Shown here: positions 23,701 through 36,500 of the stretch, in pieces | Layout: every line of letters starts with the position of its first letter | Numbering within the stretch: position 1 is the stretch's first letter | From: Lama glama | Taxonomy: Eukaryota | Direction of reading: 5' to 3' | DNA length: 64,000 nt | Assembly: GCA_028534125.1 (NCBI GenBank) | Contig: CM052816.1 | Span: forward strand, 1,674,001 to 1,738,000 | Program-made: the position numbers and the translations under genes | The notes under the pieces: generated by a model | Told to the model about the DNA's origin: nothing | Seen by the model: only the letters and a program-made list of their open reading frames with translations | Databases searched by the model: none

Positions 23701-24221
23701 AGTTAGATTCCAGGCTTGGTGACTTTGTAAGGGATAACAATGATACAGTCCTTGGCTCAAAGGGCTTTTCCTGTAGATGAGGATTAGGAAGGAGCAGAGG
23801 CAGACACTGAGGAGTGCTGTGGTTTACCCCCAGTCTTGTTCACTTTCATCTCAACTTTCTTTTGCCTATGAGTTGATGAACCTGGTGGTTGTTTTTGTGA
23901 CAAACAGGGGGAAAAAATGGGCCCTGAAGTCAAGAGGTCTGCACTCCAATCTCAGCTCCATAGTATTATACAAATGAAATCTATCTTGGGGTTTGGGGTT
24001 CATTAGATCTGAGGTCAAAAACCTGTTCTACCTTTAGCTATATGACCTTGGACAAATTACCCAACCCTTCTGATGAATAGTTGCTTTTAACTATAAAATG
24101 AGAGTAACATCAGTAACTTACCAGGTCACTGTGAAGATTAAACGCAATGGAGCATATAAAGAACTTAGCTCATGGTAGGTAAGGCTATACAATTTAACAA
24201 ATCCAGTTCATGAGAAGTAGG

Positions 24222-24339
24222 TTGCGTTCCTTATCTTTTGCTATGGAACAAGTTACCCTAAAACTTAGTGGCTTAATACAACATTTTAAAACGTTTTCTA
24301 AACTGTCATAGCTTCCTGCCTCTGATTCTCAGATTTCTT
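24222..24339 (-). mobile_element. MLT1 LTR, left part (host of the 4.07-kb insertion)
   Basis: tttgctatggaacaagttaccctaaaacttagtggcttaatacaac; reads on into 28424 (..ttctcagatttctt|acaaggctacaac..) once the insert is removed. Confidence 0.8.
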
Positions 24340-25010
24340 TTTTTTTTAATTTATCAAGTTTTTTTATTATGGGTATTGGTATAGCAGAATATAAAAATTA
24401 AATGATAAACATTTCTTCAAAGAGTACAATTTAACTTCATCTTAAAAAACGTTTATTTTTTAAAAACTATACATACTCAGGTAGAAAGAGGCTCTTTGAC
24501 TTAAACTTATGACTTCAGAATTAAACTCTAGAAATAAATGCTATGGCCATCTAAAAGTTTATATTGACAAATTGCATACATTTTCAAATTATAATGTAAT
24601 TTTTGTACACAGAATAACTATATATACACTTCACTTACATTGCTGATATATAACAACATATAAACTGTCTTGAGAAGTGAGGCTTAATTAATGTAGATTC
24701 AAACTAAGCAGAAGATCAGTCTCAATTACTACATTTCTTTCTCAACTAATAAGAGATAATCCAAACATTTGCGGAATATATAAAAAGTCCCATGCTTCAA
24801 GGTGTTGTTCTGGGAATTCCAACGTATTTTATATAAGAGATGCTGACCACGAAGGAGCTCACTGCTGTGCTCACCGGTAAAGTTGGAGGAACTCTGGTCC
24901 AAAGGAAGGGACTGCCCTCCATCCACTGGCCTCAGTGCAAATCAGGTGGTGATCTGACTAAGTGACTGAATGCAGCCTGGCAGCTTCAGAGGGGAGGGAA
25001 CAGCACAGCT

Positions 25011-25643
25011 TTAACATGAGGGCCCACTCCTGGGAAAGGGGCCATCAGGATTTGGTGCTTGGTCCCCTGGCTGGTTTGTAAAAGCCTCTTGTGATGTGCT
25101 GATTCTCGTGACCTCCTCCAGGAACTGGAGCACCTTTAGCATCTCTGCCATCTCTTCTCGTATAGACTGCAGGGGTCCCTCTCTCTTCAGTTCTTGGACG
25201 AGAAAACTGATTTCCTTCCTTGAACTCAGGTTGCCCATCATCAACTTTCTGTAGGTGTCAGCGAGGCTGGGTATGTTTACTGGCTCCTTCTCTAGCCTGG
25301 TGTCCTTTAGAGCTGTCTCCATCCTGGCACACTCCTGTTTAGCCACATAAAGCTTGTCGATGAGGTGGCACTTCTCTTCGATCTTTTCAGCCAGTGTTTT
25401 TGCCAGTTGCTTTTCATGTCTTCCATTAAGTTAACTTCTAACAGACTGAATAATAAGTCTACAAGTAAATAACATGCCCACCAAAAAGGTGAGGACAGGC
25501 AGACTCAACACTGTCTCCCAGTGGGGGCTCTGGAACATGAGCTGAGAACACAGGCCATTGGGCAGCCACAAAACCAGGACCACACTCAGCTTCCTAAGGA
25601 TCAGCCCAAGGCCAAGCTCCACGGAGGACAGCAGCCCCTCCAT
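25011..25643 (-). pseudogene. CTAGE5: Intronless cTAGE5/MIA2-like retro(pseudo)gene: 210 codons with one in-frame TAA (25431-25433); TM helix plus partial coiled coil; large internal deletion
   Basis: ORFs 25431..25751 and 25011..25346 share a frame. MEGLL..LGLIL..WETV..QSVRS*L..EKQLA..IEEK..LKD..EKE..ELK..MAE..SQ parallels remembered cTAGE5 MEEPG..LGLLL..WELV..RSVRSRL..EKKLA..IEEK..LKD..EKE..ELK..MAD..SQ. Kozak GCCATGG at 25643. Confidence 0.85.
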
Positions 25644-26139
25644 GGCACTGACCCACCCAGGGCTCCGCCCAGTTACCATGGAGCCACCAGCCACAACAAG
25701 CACCAGGGGACACCCCCAACATTCCACCTGGAACCCAGCCAGCATTGACATCTTGGATTGGTCAGTTATCTGGTCAGTGTTGGCAGGGAGGAGGCATGGC
25801 TGTCAGAGGACAAGGTTGTAACTAAAATGTCATTTTCTCCATTATTGCCTCATGGTAATTTTTTCTTCTTATCTCTTTCTTTTTGTGTTTATATCTGTAT
25901 ACAATAAAACTATAGTGAAATGTGTCAACGTAAAGTTTATGATTTCACAAACCTTTCAAATTCCTAACCCTCGACAGTATTGGAAAAGTCAGTGGATGAA
26001 CCATATGTTTGAATCACATCCACTAACACAGAATATATACCCTTTGTCACATTTCAGTTGAAATACACACACTCTTATGACATGCAGCCATCAGTCTGAT
26101 GGTGGCCAAACTTAATAAAAATGAAAAAAAATCACAATG

Positions 26140-26580
26140 TATACTTTAATGTCTGTCTCTTTTGCTCTAAGTAATGTTTTTAGAGCTACATGTTTTTATT
26201 TGAACATGCCATTCATTCTGTTTGTAGGGCTGAATAATTTGACCCTGTAAGATTATATCACAAAATATTAATCCATTCTCTTAATAATGGGCATTTGGGT
26301 TAGTTCAAGTGTGGGTTATTATGAATAAATACTTTTGTATATATATGCATGCATCTTTTTTCTAAATATCTGTTTTCATTTACCCTGTCAGGCAAATACC
26401 TGGGAGCAGCTCTGTTGGGTAGATGTGTGCTAAATACCTCATTTTGAAACATTTCTTGAGGTATAATTTACATGCCACAAACTCACTCATTTAAATACAG
26501 AATTCTTTGGTTTGTGTGTGTGTAAGTGTGCAGAGCTGTGTCTACCTCACAATCCCAGTTTAGAACAATTCTATCACAGG
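26140..26580 (-). mobile_element. Ancient L1M fragments inside the insertion cargo
   Basis: atccattctc..gggcatttgggttagttcaag..attatgaataa; ttcttgaggtataatttacatgccacaaactcactcattt. Confidence 0.65.
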
Positions 26581-26589
26581 AAAAAAAGA

Positions 26590-26830
26590 TTTCTCAGTCC
26601 ACACTTTTCTTTATCAGCTTCATTTGACACAGTCAGTCTTTCTTTCTCTTTGAAATGCTTCCATGATATAGATTCCACTTCAATACATTTCCCATTTTTA
26701 TAATTGTCTTTGTTCTTGGTTTCTGTTTTTTTATGAACTCACTGGCCTTTCCTTCTGTGACTCCGCGGATGGTTTGTACTTTTCTTCCAAACCCTTTAGC
26801 ATTAGTTTGACTCAGGAATTACTTCTTCCT
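26590..26830 (+). mobile_element. L2 fragment inside the cargo
   Basis: tcagcttcatttgacacagtcagtc..ctctttgaaatgctt..tcactggcctttccttctgtgactcc. Confidence 0.5.
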
Positions 26831-26834
26831 TTTT

Positions 26835-27160
26835 TTCTCCCATAGTTTATATTAGGGTTTACTCTTGATGTTGTATATTCTATGGGTTTTGACAAGTGCA
26901 TAATGACATGTAGTCACTATTATAGTATCATACAGAATAATTTCACTGCCCTAAAAATCCCTTGTGCTCCATCTACTCATTCCTCCCCCACTTTCTCTCC
27001 CCTGGAAAGCACAATCTTTTTATTGTTTCTGTAGCTGTGCCTTTTCCAGAATGTCGTTTGGCTGGAATCGTACAGTTTGTAGCCTTTTCAGACTGGTTTC
27101 TTTCATTTAATAATATGTCTTTTAAGTTTCTTCTACATCTTTCATGGCTTGATAGATTTT
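26835..27160 (-). mobile_element. L1MC-like 3' UTR fragment inside the cargo
   Basis: catagtttatattagggtttactcttgatgttgtatattctatgggttttgacaagtgcataatgacatg..tttcactgccctaaaaatcc. Confidence 0.8.
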
Positions 27161-27289
27161 TGGGGTTTTTTTTACTGCGTATGTATCTTTTAATTTACAT
27201 GTATGTACTGTCCATTGTTTCAAAGAGTGTTTAGAGATTTAGCTTTTTAAACTTACATAGTTATCAAAGGAATAAAGCCAACCACAAAA

Positions 27290-27407
27290 TAAGAATTAAC
27301 TCAAAAAGATATATACACCCTGCTATGAACAGCAACATTATTTATAATTGCCAAGATACGGAAACATCCTAAGTGCACATCAATATTTTAACAGAGAATG
27401 GAGATGC

Positions 27408-27439
<32 letters not shown>

Positions 27440-27850
27440 CATGTGTGTGTGTGTGTGTGTGTAATGGAATATATGTAAGTCACCATAAAAAAGGATATTT
27501 TGCCACTTGGAGACCTTCATTCACTTTTTTTTTTCACTTCAAAAACCAGAATTTTATAACTGGCAGAGACATTTCCATTACATCGAAAACAACAAAATAT
27601 CTAGAAATAAACTTAACCAAGGAGGTACCCATACTTTGAAAACCGAAATGACAAAGAAATGGAAAGATTGCTTGTGCTCTTGTATTGGAAGAATCAACAC
27701 TATCGAAATGGCCACACTACCCAAAGCAATCCACAGATACAACGCAACCCCCGTCAAAATACTCAAGACATTCCTCACAGATCTAGAACAAACAATTCCA
27801 CAATTTATAAGGAACCACAAAAGTCCCCAAACAGCCAAAGTAATATTTTG
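27290..27850 (+). mobile_element. L1 fragments (ORF2 end/3' region with (TG)n at 27410-27462, then ORF2 piece ~27565-27850)
   Basis: Translations KYLEINLTKEV and KWKDCLCSCIGRINTIEMATLPKAIHRYNATPVKI. Confidence 0.85.
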
Positions 27851-28409
27851 TAGGTCTCTTTTTCCCCCTCTTTCTTCTTTTTGTTCTCTTTTCTTATGGT
27901 TTGATGACTAGAGGAGGTCCTTTAACATTTGTTGTAAAGCTGGTTTGGTGGTGCTGAAATCTTTTAGCTTTTGTTTATCTGTGAAGCTTTTGATTTCTCC
28001 ATCAAGTCTGAACGAGAGCCTTGCTGGATAGAGTATTATTGGTTGTAAGTTTCCCCCTTGCATCACTTTAAATGTATCATGCCACTCCCTTCTGGCCTGT
28101 AGAGTTTCTGCTGAGAAATCAGCTGATAACCTTATGGGAGTACCGTTGTATGTTATTCATTGCTTTTCTCTTGCTATTTTTAATATTTTCTCCTTATCCT
28201 TAATTGATGTCAATTTGATGACTGTGTGCCTTTGTGTTTTCCTCTTTGGGTTGATTCTGTGTGGTACTCTCTGTGCTTCCAGGACTTGGGTGACTGTTTC
28301 CTTTCCCAAGTTGGGGAAGTTTTAGGTTATTATCTCTCCAAAAATTTTCTCAGGTCCTTTCTCTTTCTTTTCTCTTTTTGGGACCCCTATAATGTGAATA
28401 TCAGAGCAC
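27851..28409 (-). mobile_element. L1 ORF1 C-terminal half plus start of the inter-ORF spacer; 5' end of the insertion
   Basis: Minus-strand translation: IHIIGVP..EAQRVPHRINPKR..TPIRLSADFSAETLQARREWHDTFKV..YPARLSF..FSTTKPALQQMLKDLL*. Confidence 0.9.
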
Positions 28410-28830
28410 TTCTCAGATTTCTTACAAGGCTACAACTAACATGTTGTAGCCAGGCCTGCAGTCTCATCTGAAGCTTGACTGGGGAGGAGTCTGCTCACTC
28501 AGGGATTGGTTCCTTGCTGTATAAAAGGCCACATTTCCTTGCTGGCTCTATCATTTTGCTTGCCATGTTGGCGTTGCCATAAGGCAGCTCATACCATGGT
28601 ATCTGGCTTCCCACAGAGCAAACAAGTGAGTGAAAGAGAGTGTCCAAGATGGAAGCCATAGTCTTTTGGTAATTGAATCTTGAAAGTGACACCTTATTAC
28701 CTTAAGCCACACTCTATTTATTAGAAATCCATCACTAGATCTAGGACATTCTCAGGGTAGGGGATTACCAAGGGCTTGAAGGCCAGGAGGTGGAAATCAC
28801 TGGGGGTTATCTTAGAGGCTGTGAATCCCA
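28410..28830 (-). mobile_element. MLT1 LTR, right part
   Basis: acaaggctacaac..gcctgcagtctcatctgaagcttgactgggga..ccaagatggaagccatagtctttt..ggccaggaggtggaaatcactggggg. Confidence 0.85.
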
Positions 28831-32065: not shown

Positions 32066-33508
32066 CAGGCATGCCTCATTTTATGGTGATTCAATTTTTT
32101 ACTTTTTTTTTTTTTTTTTTACAAATTGAAAGTTTGTAGCAACCCTCCATAGAGCAAGTCTATCAGTGCCAGTTTTTCAAAGGCACTCACTCACTTCATG
32201 TCCCCATATCACATTTTGGTAACTTTGAAAATATTTCACACTTTTTCATTATTATTACATTTGTTATGGTACTCTGAGAGCAGTGATCTTTGACGTTACT
32301 GTTTTAATTGTTTTGGGGTACCACAAACCACACCCATATGAGACCACAAACTTGATAAATGCTGTGTGTGCTCTGACTGCTCCACCAACTGGCTGTTCCC
32401 CCATCTCTCTTCCTCTCCTTGGGTCTCCCTATTCTCTGAGATACAATAGTATTGAAATTAGGCCAATTAATAACCCTAAAATGGCCTCTAAGTGTTCAAG
32501 TGAAAAGAAGTGTCACATGTCTCACTTTAAATCAAAAACTAGAAATGATTAAGTTTAGTGAGGAAGGCGTGTTGAAAGCCGAGATAGGCCAAAAGCTAGG
32601 CCTCTTGTGCCAAACACTAAGCTCAGCTGTGAATGCAAAAGAAACGATCTTGAAGGAAATTAAAGGTGCAACTCCAGGGGACACATAAATGTTTAGAAAG
32701 TGAACCAGCCTCATTGCTGATATTTAGTAGTGTGGCTAGAAGACCAAACCATTCACAACATTCCCTTAAGTCAGTGCCTAATCCAGAGCAAAACCCTAAT
32801 TCTCTTCAATTCTGTGAAGGCTGAGAGAGGTGAGGAAGCTACAGGAGAAAAGCTGGAAGTTAGCAGAAGTTGGTTCACTAGGTTTAAGGAAAGAACTCAT
32901 CTCCATAATATCAGAATGTATGATGAAGCAGCAAGCGCTGTTGTAAAAGCTTCAGCAAGTTACCCAGAAGATCCAGCTAAGATAAGAAATGAAAGTGCCT
33001 ACACTGAACTATAGATTTTCAGTGTAGATAAAAACAACCTTATATTGGATGTTGGAAGAAGACGCCATCTAGGACTTTAATAGCTCGAGAGGAGAAGTCA
33101 ATGCCTGGCTCCAGAGTTTCCAAGTACAGGATGACTCTCTTAAGGGCTATTGCAGCTGGTGACTTTAACTTGAAGCCATTGTTCATTGACCATTACAAAA
33201 ATCCGAGGACCCTTAAGAATTATGCTAAATGTACTCTGCCTGTATTCTATAAATGAAACAACAAAGCCTGCTTACAATGTGGTTTTCTGACTATTTTGGC
33301 TACTGTTGAGAACAACTGCTCAGAAAAAGATTCCTTTCAAAATATTCCTGCTTATTGACAATGTACCTGGTTATCCAAGAGCTCTGATGGAGATGGACAA
33401 CAAGATTTATGTTGTTTCATGCCTGCTTATACAACATCCACTCTTCAGTCCATGGATCAAGGAGTAATTTCAAATTTCAAGTCTTATTATTTAAGAAATA
33501 CATTTCAT

Positions 33509-36500
33509 GAACAACTGTATGGCAACAAATTGGACAACCTAGAAGAAATGGACAAGTTTCTAGAAACATACAGTCCACCAAAACTGAATCAAGAAGAAAC
33601 AGATAATTTGAACAGATCAATCACTAGAAGTGAAATAGAATCAGCAATAAAAAACCTCCCTGTGAACAAAAATCCAGGAACAGGTGACTTCACTGGGGAA
33701 TTCTACCAAATATACAAAGAAGAACTCATACTGTTCCTTCTCAAACTCCTCCAAAAGACTGAAGAGGATGGAACACTCCCAAAGTCTTTGGAACACTCCC
33801 AAAGCCACTATTACCCTGATACCAAAGCCAGATGAAGATACTACCAAAAAAGAAAGTTATAGGCCAATATCACTGATGAACATAGATGTAAAAATCCTCA
33901 ACAAAATATTAGCAAACAAAATCCAACAATACCTAAAAAAGGTCATATGCCATGATCAAGTTGGATTCATGCCAGGGACATAGGATGGTTCAACATATAC
34001 AAATCAACCAATGGGATACCCAACATCATCAAAAGAAATGAGAAAAATCATATGATCTTCTCAATAGATGCAGAAAAAGCATTTGATAAAATTCAACACC
34101 CATCTATGATAAAAAGTCTTACTAAATGGGTAGAGGGAACATATCTCAACATAATAACAGCTATTTACGACAAACCCACAGCCAACATAATATTCAACAG
34201 TGAAAACCTGAAAGCCTTCCCGCTAAAATCTGGAACAAGCCAAGGATGCCCACTCTCACCACTTGTATTCAACATAATATTGGAAGTCTTAACCATAGCA
34301 ATCAGACCAGAAAAATAAATTAAAGGGATCCAAATTGGAAGAGAAGAGGTAAAACTGTCACTATTTGAGGATGATATGGTAATATATATAGAAAACCCTA
34401 AAGGCTCCACTCAGAAACTACTAGAGATGATAAAAGAATCCAGCAAGGTAGCAGGATACAAGATTAACAAACATAGCACAGGGAAATATATTCAATATCT
34501 TATATTAGCTCACAGTGAAAAAGAATATGAAAATGAATATTTGTATATTCATGTATGACTGAAGAATGGTGCTGCACAGAAGAAACTGACACAACATTGT
34601 AAACTGACTATATCTCAAGAAAAAAATTTTTTAAGTTTTTTTAATTAAAAAAATAAAAAGATTAACATATAGAAATCAGTTGCATTTCTTTACACTAACA
34701 ATGAAATATCAGAAAAGGAAAGTGAAAAAACAATCCCTTTTAAAAGCTCATCAGAAAAATAAAATAAAATACTTAGGAATAAACCTGACCAAGGAAGTGA
34801 AAGACTTATATGTGGAGAACTATGAAACACTGACTAAGGAAATTAAAGATGACTTAAAGAAATGGAAAGATATTCCATGCTCTTGGACTGGATTAAGTAA
34901 TATTGTTAAAATGGCCACACTATCCAAACCAATCTACAGATTTAATGCAATTCCTATCAAATTACCCAGAACATTTTTCACAGAACTAGAACAAATAATC
35001 CTAAAATTTATATGGAATCACAATAGACCGAGAATTGCCAAAGCATCACTGAAGAAAAAGAATGAAGCTGAAGGAATAACCCTCTATATGGACAGTACTA
35101 CAGAAGTACAGTAATCAAAACAGTGTGGTGCAGGTACAAAAACAGACATATGGATCAATGGAACAGAACAGAGAGCCCAGAAATAAATCCACACACTGAC
35201 AGTCAATTAACTGCCAAAGAAGGCAAGATCATACAACAGAGAAAAGACAGTTTCTTCATCAAGTGGTGTTGGGAAAGCTGGACAGACACACGTAAATCAA
35301 TGAAGTCAGAATGCTCCCTCACACTATACACAAAAATACACTCAAAATGGGTTAAAGACTTAAACATAAGACAAGACACTATACACCTCCTAGAAGAAAA
35401 CATTGGCAAAATGTTTTTTGACATAAATCTTGACAATCTCCTAGAACAGTCTACTGAGGCAACAGAATATAAGCAAAAATAAACAAATGGGGCCTAATTA
35501 TACTTATAAGCATTTGCACAGCAAAGGAAACCATAAACAAAATGAAAAGACAACCTAAGGAATAGGAGAAAATATTTGCAAATGATGTGACTGACAAGGA
35601 CTTAATTTCCAGAATATACAAACGGCTTATACAACTTAATAACAAAAAACAACCCAATCCAAAAATGGACAGAAGACCTAAACAAGCAATTCTTCAATGA
35701 AGACATACAAATGGCCAATAAGCATATGAAAAGATGCTCAATGTCACTAATTATCAGAGAAATGCAAATCAAAACTACAATGAGGTATCACCTCACACCA
35801 GTCAGAATGGTCATCATTCAAAGGGCCACAAACAATAAATGCTGGAGAGGGTGTGGAGAAAAAGGAACCCTCCTACATTGTTGGTGAGAATGTGGATTAG
35901 TGCAGCCATTATGGAAAATAGTATGGAGATTCCTCAAAAAACTAAAAATAGATTTATCATATGATCCAGCAATCCCACTCTTAGGTATGCATACGGACAA
36001 AACTCCAATTCAAAAAGATACATGCACCCCAATGTTCACTGCAGCACTATTTACAAAAGCCAGGACATGGAAACCACCTAAATGTACACTGACAGATGAC
36101 TGGATAAAGAAGTTGTGGTATATTTACACAATGGAATACTACTCAGCCATACAAAAGAATAAAATAATGTCACTTGCAGCATCATGGATGGACCTGGAGA
36201 AGTTATACTTAGTGAAGTAAGCCAGAAAAAGAAAGAAAAATACCATATGGTATCACTTATATGTGGAATCTAAAAAAAAAAAAAAAGACACAAATGAACT
36301 TATTTACAAAACAGCAATAGACTCACAGATATAGAAAACAAACTTACGGTCACCAGAGGGGAAAGAGGGGTGGGAAGGGATAAGTTGGGAGTTGGAGATT
36401 TGCAGATACTAACTAATATATACAAAATAGATAAATAGCAAGTTTCTACTGTATAGCACAGGGAATATATTTAATATCTTGCAGTAATCTGTAGTGAAAA

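Follow-up and report, generated by a model that had tools for sequence, protein, structure and literature searches.

We describe a chimeric retroelement in the llama genome (Lama glama, assembly GCA_028534125.1), recognized in a window of 64,000 nucleotides of contig CM052816.1 (positions 1,674,001 to 1,738,000; positions below are those of the window). Its passenger is a 210-codon reading frame that derives from cTAGE5, an isoform of MIA2, and that we call mini-cTAGE. With a probability of roughly 85%, the stretch from 28409 to 24338 on the minus strand is a single 4.1-kb, 5'-truncated insertion of a non-autonomous element, in which L1 sequence has been joined to a retrocopy of the host gene. 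The locus itself is a dead insertion, a neutral, later-generation passenger copy from which no protein is made, and the ancient mini-cTAGE retrogene behind it is real, with indirect support for selection on it. The initial annotation, made from the sequence letters, had read the frame as the trace of a hidden functional paralogue, encoded by a source retrogene that selection had kept open; the half-L1 vehicle had escaped it.

The boundaries of the insertion can be read directly. A perfect 14-bp direct repeat, AAGAAATCTGAGAA, flanks it (copies at 28423-28410 and 24339-24326), and this target-site duplication encloses the entire chimeric unit, not the cTAGE part only. Following the element from its 5' side, a fragment of L1 ORF1 comes first, in which Pfam recognizes the Tnp_22_dsRBD domain (27908-28156, E 4.5e-25). 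It is followed by a scrap of L1 ORF2 in inverted orientation, for which a Pfam match is absent and which resembles the ORF2 end of an L1 at window 34635-35114 (blastn, 70-77% identity over ~200 nt in all eight extended loci). After a microsatellite comes a spacer that is ~85-88% identical in all non-truncated sister copies; it had no match in Pfam or in Rfam, the latter searched over 24000-28800 without any hit. The cTAGE-derived part, with a polyadenylation signal and a poly(A) remnant, closes the element.

Sister copies elsewhere in the genome extend further upstream than the window copy, through the remaining ORF1 into the L1 5' untranslated region (UTR). A full-length copy measures 5.3-5.4 kb and consists of L1 5'UTR, L1 ORF1, inverted ORF2 scrap (0.4 kb), (GT)n, spacer (~1.6 kb), mini-cTAGE retrocopy and poly(A). 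When loci were compared with each other, six of the eight extended ones shared a common 5' end, 5270-5432 nt from the 3' end, which begins TTTCCTGTCAAGATGGCAGAGTGG; L033 and the window copy are truncated at differing points, and L038 is shorter still. Position 28412 was considered as the 5' end of the element and rejected, since six of eight alignments stop there only because the truncated window copy had been the query. The first 921 nt of the element found 2796 candidate loci genome-wide; the best 40, which were scored, are 85-89% identical, and most of them start at query base 1-11, mostly at loci without a cTAGE part. The next 0.9 kb encodes the trimerization, RBD and dsRBD domains of L1 ORF1 (Tnp_22_trimer, Transposase_22, Tnp_22_dsRBD). 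In one full-length copy these ORF1 domains were the sole Pfam matches, and none of its 53 six-frame open stretches of at least 45 aa carried an endonuclease or reverse-transcriptase domain of ORF2.

The element is present in many copies. A protein search of the llama's own 2.35-Gb assembly yielded 153 matches at E<=0.001 (629 first-look candidates, 150 scored), and a search with the 671-nt 3'UTR yielded 202 candidates, 40 of which were scored, all with E<1e-189; the copy number in this genome is at least 150-200. The sampled copies are old, being ~78-89% alike. In 23 of 29 loci the alignment stops at the same 3' position (24330-24352); five of the others are cut by contig ends, and one stops at 24452. 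The 5' ends are scattered, for example over 25453-26101 in eight loci. Target-site duplications of their own are clear for the window copy, L032, L034, L035, L037 and the truncated L033, and unclear for L031 and L036. The insertions are independent retrotransposition events of the L1 type. Multiplication of one locus by segmental, DNA-level duplication, to which ~630 nt of shared 3' flank in L032 and L036 and inverted identical pairs such as L058/L059 might point, is hardly credible for the family as a whole: it is contradicted by flanks that differ at both ends in other copies, and by their own target-site duplications, poly(A) and variable 5' truncation. Such duplication may possibly account for a few secondary pairs.

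Two observations on these pairs are recorded here. L032 (G000:C26) and L036 (G000:C35), two full-length copies on different chromosome-scale contigs, share their flank past the poly(A) and differ in their 5' flanks; either the DNA was duplicated at a later time or both copies landed in one and the same older repeat. Identical inverted pairs on one contig (L058/L059 on G000:C916804; also on C92398, C439035 and C94620) are separated by hundreds of kb to nearly 3 Mb and look like large inverted duplications or assembly artefacts.

At the window locus, the mini-cTAGE frame (25643-25014, minus strand) starts MEGLLSS in the context GCCATGG. It runs for 210 codons with a single premature in-frame TAA, at codon 71 (25431-25433), as far as a terminal TAA at 25011-25013, past which the same frame continues through one further stop to 24729. 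Residues 42-66 (25446-25520) are hydrophobic and align with the membrane segment of cTAGE5/MIA2. In a structure that AlphaFold2 predicted for an intact sister copy, this segment is helical; helices span residues 3-26, 29-45, 48-116 (continuous) and 123-185, and the end is disordered (mean predicted local distance difference test score, pLDDT, 68). In these respects the initial description of the locus was accurate: translation, start context and membrane segment are all as it had stated them. The frame end ...GPFPRSGPxx is found in 8 of 13 aligned homologues, and two more end there with one substitution.

The stop at codon 71 is a private hit that the window copy took after insertion, because its sister copies have Q, H or R at this position. 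Compared with 24 of them, the window copy also has one additional codon, II for I at residues 64-65. One disabling change in 210 codons and a good start context could also be seen as signs of a functional locus, with a TAA that is polymorphic, is read through or results from faulty assembly. We regard this as very unlikely: private changes are neutral across the family, the window copy is without the element's 5'UTR, which holds the presumed promoter, and there is no recoding evidence.

Pfam searches with both halves of the frame gave sub-threshold coiled-coil noise only. MIA2 itself is without a Pfam domain; Pfam therefore cannot decide membership, and homology was tested by sequence search. 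Among solved structures, the mini-cTAGE frame had no relative at E<=0.01. As a reference protein we used P0053, a cTAGE5-type MIA2 isoform of the raccoon dog (806 aa). BLASTP aligned frame residues 1-187 with MIA2 1-195 (32% identity, E 1e-19), and tblastn gave a second match, collinear and in the same frame, of MIA2 519-588 with the tail (30% identity, E 0.021), which reads through two stops, the terminal one included. The llama's own MIA2 gene lies on contig C8, and L069 is its exon for residues 517-560. The first 75 nt of this exon are identical to window 25057-24983 at 42 positions, in the same codon phase, which is the best of ~4000 ungapped offsets (runner-up 33, z 6.4). This offset scan was decisive, whereas aligning exon and tail locally at the nucleotide level under stringent settings gave no significant result (30 of 500 shuffles reached the score). 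At the place of the terminal TAA of the mini frame, the MIA2 exon has GAA (Glu).

Between the two matching parts, ~320 residues (MIA2 196-516) are missing in frame. The similarity to cTAGE5, the in-frame jump to a later exon, a coiled-coil loss estimated at ~300 aa and a proline-rich tail decayed into 3'UTR had all been proposed in the initial annotation, and all agree with these alignments, the last with the read-through similarity to MIA2 519-588. From a collection of 1.84 billion representatives, a profile built from 13 mini proteins retrieved 270 proteins (E<=0.001). The long ones that we looked up were all annotated as MIA2 or cTAGE5, from mammals and reptiles, and P0053 scored E 1.7e-29; a word-indexed search did not find such longer relatives, which the exhaustive profile search did. 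Together with the BLASTP match over residues 1-195, this places the frame within the MIA2/cTAGE family, as the initial annotation had proposed.

Of the features of the MIA/cTAGE family, mini-cTAGE has the sequence homology and the membrane segment. It has neither two coiled coils, as coil 1 is kept only to MIA2 residue 195, nor a proline-rich domain, as the stop falls 15 codons into the first proline-rich exon and the rest of this region, beyond the mini frame, is decayed 3'UTR. It has the hallmarks of a processed pseudogene, in that the exon for MIA2 517-541 adjoins the N-terminal exons without an intron and that poly(A), a TAA and a neutral omega (see below) are present. Mini-cTAGE is thus a descendant of MIA2 in its cTAGE5 isoform, with an in-frame internal loss.

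An older copy without the L1 part separates two generations. L070, on contig C13 (18.57 Mb), is a much more diverged mini-cTAGE copy with two stops in frame. It has only the cTAGE-derived part of ~1.25 kb in common with the element (67.6% identity), from ~130 nt 5' of the ATG to ~230 nt short of the 3' end. The spacer is absent from L070, as is the whole 2.6 kb of non-cTAGE sequence that lies upstream in the window insertion; in the upstream open frames of L070, inspected by reading without a Pfam run, an L1 ORF1-like frame was not seen. The start of the L070 homology marks a 5' leader of the original retrocopy, which is also matched by upstream read-through peptides of the goat-like proteins P0019 and P0023. 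In the protein tree, L070 groups with raccoon dog P0017 and further relatives (support 90 and 99). By these comparisons a plain mini-cTAGE retrocopy preceded the fusion with L1, which followed in one lineage, and the window copy stems from the fusion. The earlier view of the locus as a second-generation copy is thus upheld by the L1 and spacer sequence that the plain copy lacks.

A processed pseudogene of the first generation, made at this site directly from MIA2/cTAGE5 mRNA, would likewise start at the cTAGE5-specific Met, join non-adjacent exons, and carry poly(A) and a target-site duplication. Such an origin is scarcely tenable, since the protein identity to MIA2 is 32%, as opposed to 62-82% to other copies, since, upstream of its cTAGE part, the segment between the target-site duplications holds another 2.6 kb of L1 and spacer, and since the same composite is found at many loci.

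Mini-cTAGE is also found in other mammals. Arctic fox, raccoon dog (two paralogues) and many further assemblies have open frames of 202-210 aa whose start, junction and stop agree with those described here; the signature of the junction is ...TSQGAFPN.PG...GPFPRSGP. The stop-free copies with this junction and terminal stop, for which the initial annotation had recommended a search, therefore exist both in this genome and in other mammals. The public annotation of the arctic fox contains one as a 210-aa 'cTAGE family member 9', and the Mexican wolf has a longer annotated model of 264 aa. Goat and camel models contain most of the frame, several of them cut, extended or interrupted. The junction also occurs in a leaf-nosed bat protein and in tree shrew, and in frameshifted form in ground squirrel.

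A protein tree that included N-termini of MIA2 united the minis in a single clade (support 100) on a stem of 0.82 substitutions per site, with two old lineages that are both represented in canids and in this genome. The minis thus had a single origin before the carnivore-ungulate split, and have evolved fast since then. The ancestral mini-cTAGE is older than the divergence of carnivores, bats and even-toed ungulates from one another, and probably also older than the split from tree shrews and rodents. The family therefore predates Laurasiatheria, the group across which the initial annotation had proposed to search, since tree shrew and ground squirrel proteins carry the junction. Nor is the paralogue entirely hidden, as the 210-aa model of the arctic fox was already annotated. 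That the frame stayed open for so long suggests that mini-cTAGE once worked as a protein or continues to do so in some lineages.

Further public gene models touch this family. P0020 (Camelus ferus), P0004 (C. dromedarius) and P0018 (C. bactrianus) lie on family copies. One camel model joins mini residues 80-194 to an aminotransferase (PF00155, '8-amino-7-oxononanoate synthase-like'), and two have a GC-rich insertion of ~100 aa in frame; the camel models are likely to be annotation artefacts from the repeat. In Callospermophilus lateralis, P0030, P0170 and P0171 are very long 'low quality' models with repeated MIA2-like and mini-like blocks, and P0030 reaches 226 bits against the mini profile, more than genuine MIA2 proteins do. 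Copies derived from cTAGE may accordingly be numerous in ground squirrels, too.

We analyzed selection on the copies of this genome. Among the 25 best protein matches, a sample biased towards unbroken frames, 11 are intact, three are open without an ATG, five have stops and six are frameshifted. Twenty-four of 29 loci picked by 3'UTR similarity hold the whole frame region, and five of the 24 are intact. Variants were counted in 23 copies sampled by their 3'UTR regardless of frame, with the expected spectrum taken from the adjoining UTR. Private synonymous, non-synonymous and stop variants (observed 90/209/8, expected 80/216/11.1, p 0.31) and shared ones (observed 62/117/3, expected 53.8/122.6/5.6, p 0.25) did not depart significantly from this expectation. 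Private substitutions were as dense in the frame (0.492 per site) as in the UTR (0.496 per site). The ratio of non-synonymous to synonymous substitution rates (dN/dS), computed pairwise after Nei-Gojobori, had a median of 0.62 in the frame versus 0.82 and 0.77 in the two shifted frames. A maximum-likelihood codon model with transition bias gave an omega of 0.89 (kappa 4.05), and fixing omega at 1 cost 1.18 log-likelihood units (2dlnL 2.35, p ~0.12). DNA of homologues from other species was not found in JGI metagenome contigs, and a cross-species dN/dS was therefore not computed; the codon tests cover this genome only. Sampled-word content was 26-40% in 14 DNA runs from five organisms and 10-17% in six RNA or possibly RNA runs, two of them from the reproductive system; we do not count these values as evidence of expression or of fixation of the TAA.

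These results indicate that the copies drift neutrally after insertion, and that any constraint on the source during the burst would be too weak to show in this genome. The initial annotation had named, as an outcome that would speak against it, a family in which all copies are disabled and dN/dS is near 1. Here, five of 24 copies are intact and omega is not different from 1. Selection on the source is not needed to explain the near-intact frame of this locus, in view of omega, of the equal densities in frame and UTR and of the small intact fraction; a selected source gene has indirect support from other species.

The strongest form of that explanation holds that the source gene is under purifying selection in this genome, that it encodes a working protein with a membrane segment and part of coil 1, and that the near-intact frame in the window reflects this selection. 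We consider it doubtful, although the evidence from other mammals speaks for it. The open frames of arctic fox, raccoon dog and other assemblies share start, junction and stop, further frames with the junction but other lengths or ends are known from Mexican wolf, bat and tree shrew, and in frameshifted form from ground squirrel, and the minis make up one clade whose two old lineages are both present in canids and llama. Residues 56-100, a region chosen post hoc that comprises the end of the membrane helix, the juxtamembrane part and the first coil, exceed the rest in mean pairwise identity when species are compared (+0.145, permutation p 1e-4), show no such excess among the copies of this genome (-0.02, p 0.78), and are also best conserved with respect to MIA2. 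By a rough estimate, based on the stop fraction (0.036-0.038) and the indel-to-substitution ratios of the llama copies, neutral drift since the carnivore-ungulate split should have produced several stops and ten or more frameshifts; over such a time the frame survived on at least two old lineages.

Against purifying selection stand the omega within the genome, which does not differ significantly from 1, and a frame that diverges as fast as its UTR. Rate variation across species is as flat as in decaying copies (gamma shape 3.68 vs 2.65), unlike in typical constrained proteins. The fox and raccoon dog orthologues differ at ~15 of 207 residues and by a 3-residue deletion, which is near the expectation without constraint for the divergence time that we assume for these species. 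Furthermore, database proteins are biased towards open frames, and L070, the copy of the second lineage, lineage B, is dead. We therefore prefer the reading of the window copy as a neutral passenger of the chimeric element.

The spread of the element can be pictured as follows. Transcripts would probably start at the L1 promoter inside the copied sequence, would end at the polyadenylation signal of mini-cTAGE, and would be copied back into the genome by L1 machinery acting in trans, a route that we propose because each insertion has its own poly(A) and its own target-site duplication and 5' truncation is frequent. The passenger frame itself goes back to an earlier processed copy of MIA2 mRNA, of the cTAGE5 isoform and without residues 196-516. 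This ancestral copy encodes the membrane anchor and the first half of coil 1, with a stop replacing Glu early in the proline-rich exon. Once inserted, copies decayed neutrally, the window copy included.

Several points weigh against this reading. That transcription begins at the L1 promoter is only suggested, by the common 5' end and by what we take to be a YY1-like box. ORF1 is broken in all six full-length copies read, so that production of ORF1p by the source can only be presumed. In an earlier, mixed sample of 32 copies, partly picked by protein score, shared variants included fewer non-synonymous changes and stops than expected (observed 92/187/3, expected 70.6/200.8/10.6, p 0.0016), and in the mixed, protein-picked sample frameshifting indels were fewer in the frame than in the UTR. 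This deficit, which is not significant in the frame-blind sample, hints that the source perhaps kept its frame open during the burst. Finally, the element may already be catalogued in Repbase or Dfam.

If translated, mini-cTAGE is predicted to be a tail-less membrane protein of the endoplasmic reticulum (ER) with the first ~135 residues of coil 1; a role as decoy or modulator at ER exit sites is a guess. Rather tentatively, one may envisage a boreoeutherian, intronless mini-cTAGE gene for an ER-membrane protein of 205-210 aa, consisting of the anchor and the first half of the Sec12-binding coil. Its frame would have been preserved in several orders over tens of millions of years while its sequence evolved fast, and the protein would act as a naturally truncated competitor or regulator of cTAGE5 and Sec12 at ER exit sites and probably in the germline, and one copy of it, joined behind L1 5'UTR-ORF1, would have spread to a few hundred loci.

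Table 1. Features of the chimeric insertion and its flanks, listed from the 5' to the 3' side of the element.
Feature	Window coordinates	Strand	Basis
5' target-site duplication AAGAAATCTGAGAA	28410..28423		direct reading
L1 ORF1 fragment, sense with the element; window copy 5'-truncated within ORF1	27908..28409	-	Pfam Tnp_22_dsRBD
L1 ORF2 C-terminal scrap, antisense to the element	27489..27911	+	open frame, blastn
(GT)26 microsatellite within the element	27411..27462		Tandem Repeats Finder
Spacer of unknown origin, co-amplified with the frame	25776..27410	-	sister-copy homology
cTAGE5-type 5' leader of the original mini-cTAGE retrocopy	25644..25775	-	L070 homology
Mini-cTAGE frame, disabled	25014..25643	-	translation, BLASTP vs MIA2, AlphaFold2 model of sister copy
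Segment from MIA2 exon, residues 517-541, in frame with the N-terminal part	24983..25057	-	offset scan z 6.4, tblastn E 0.021
Terminal TAA, aligned to GAA (Glu) of the MIA2 exon	25011..25013	-	alignment with this genome's MIA2 exon
Decayed proline-rich coding region and 3'UTR, AATAAA at 24368-24363	24348..25010	-	read-through similarity to MIA2 519-588
Poly(A) remnant A10	24338..24347	-	direct reading, after AATAAA
3' target-site duplication AAGAAATCTGAGAA, first two A overlap the tail	24326..24339		direct reading

Outside the insertion, the plus strand of the window carries broken frames of L1 ORF2 character (reverse-transcriptase and C-terminal) at 33359-36220, an ordinary decayed L1 unrelated to the insertion. 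Two further groups of matches were found elsewhere in the genome. The first covers frame residues 1 to ~155 only, at 42-46% identity and with 1-4 stops each (C32:5771-6226, C32:11030-11482, C32:263077-263532 and ~25 small contigs). Many of its members have a 199-aa open stretch, two on C32 are spaced 5.3 kb apart, and the group may represent a cTAGE-like repeat of greater age or in tandem arrangement. The second consists of uninterrupted matches to the middle coiled coil, MIA2 ~184-534, at 28-41% identity (for example C9:16484881-16485861, C4:101997503-101998474, C19:18381702-18382583 and C590146:6563-7537). Some of these are stop-free, with surrounding open frames of 504-689 aa; the group may consist of further retrogenes of cTAGE type or of coiled-coil genes without any relationship to cTAGE.

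For genome annotation, the family means that a few hundred loci, some with open 210-codon frames, will resemble cTAGE genes to gene finders. Public annotations of camel, fox, wolf and tree shrew already contain such models. Most are decaying retroelement passengers. For transposon biology, it offers a gene fragment amplified with an L1 promoter attached, in a half-L1 whose 3' half is a complete host retrogene. For cell biology, it reveals an old, naturally truncated cTAGE5 in mammals, comprising the anchor and half of coil 1 without the parts that bind TANGO1 or Sec23. If any copy is expressed, mini-cTAGE would lend itself to studying the function of the initial portion of coil 1 at ER exit sites.

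Among known elements, the closest parallel is HAL1, which, according to PMC13756887 (citing Bao and Jurka 2010), has only ORF1 and occurs throughout mammals. Like HAL1, our element has an L1-derived 5'UTR and ORF1 and no ORF2 domain, and its copies are dispersed, with poly(A), target-site duplications and 5' truncation, features that together argue for dependence on L1 enzymes in trans. It differs from HAL1 in that its 3' half is a complete processed derivative of a host gene, with a 210-codon frame and a polyadenylation signal, and in the broken ORF1 of the copies read.

A second parallel is 3' transduction or template switching by L1, in which L1 and non-L1 sequence likewise travel together in a single RNA, terminated at a polyadenylation signal further downstream. 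In classical 3' transduction, a whole L1 including ORF2 precedes the flank, whereas our element is without ORF2 and it is the composite itself that multiplied, since all copies have identical internal junctions.

The parent gene is known as a component of ER exit sites. Human cTAGE5 has two coiled-coil regions, the first of which (aa 61-300) binds Sec12, according to PMC4164946, and PMC5379956 lists a proline-rich region as common to all TANGO1-like proteins. With cTAGE5/MIA2, and with TANGO1S, mini-cTAGE shares the start, the membrane segment and the first ~135 residues of coil 1. Unlike them, it has no introns and lacks coil 2, the proline-rich domain and the remainder of coil 1, and its rate of evolution is far above that of MIA2.

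Searches of the literature on cTAGE retrogenes and retrocopies, cTAGE/MIA2 retroposition and camelid HAL1, with repeat databases outside their scope, revealed no short cTAGE retrogene or chimera. The nearest relatives in kind are the primate CTAGE genes (CTAGE1, 4, 6, 8, 9, 15), which are also cTAGE5 retrocopies multiplied in one mammalian lineage and after which annotators have named the mini proteins of fox and tree shrew. Primate CTAGE genes keep the full coiled coils and the proline-rich tail, at ~750-780 aa. The minis differ from them by the loss of ~320 residues, the early stop and a clade of their own. In comparison with these systems, a vehicle made of a half-L1 and a host retrogene, and the old mini-cTAGE lineage that it carries, appear modestly new, and the window locus an ordinary neutral retro-pseudogene.

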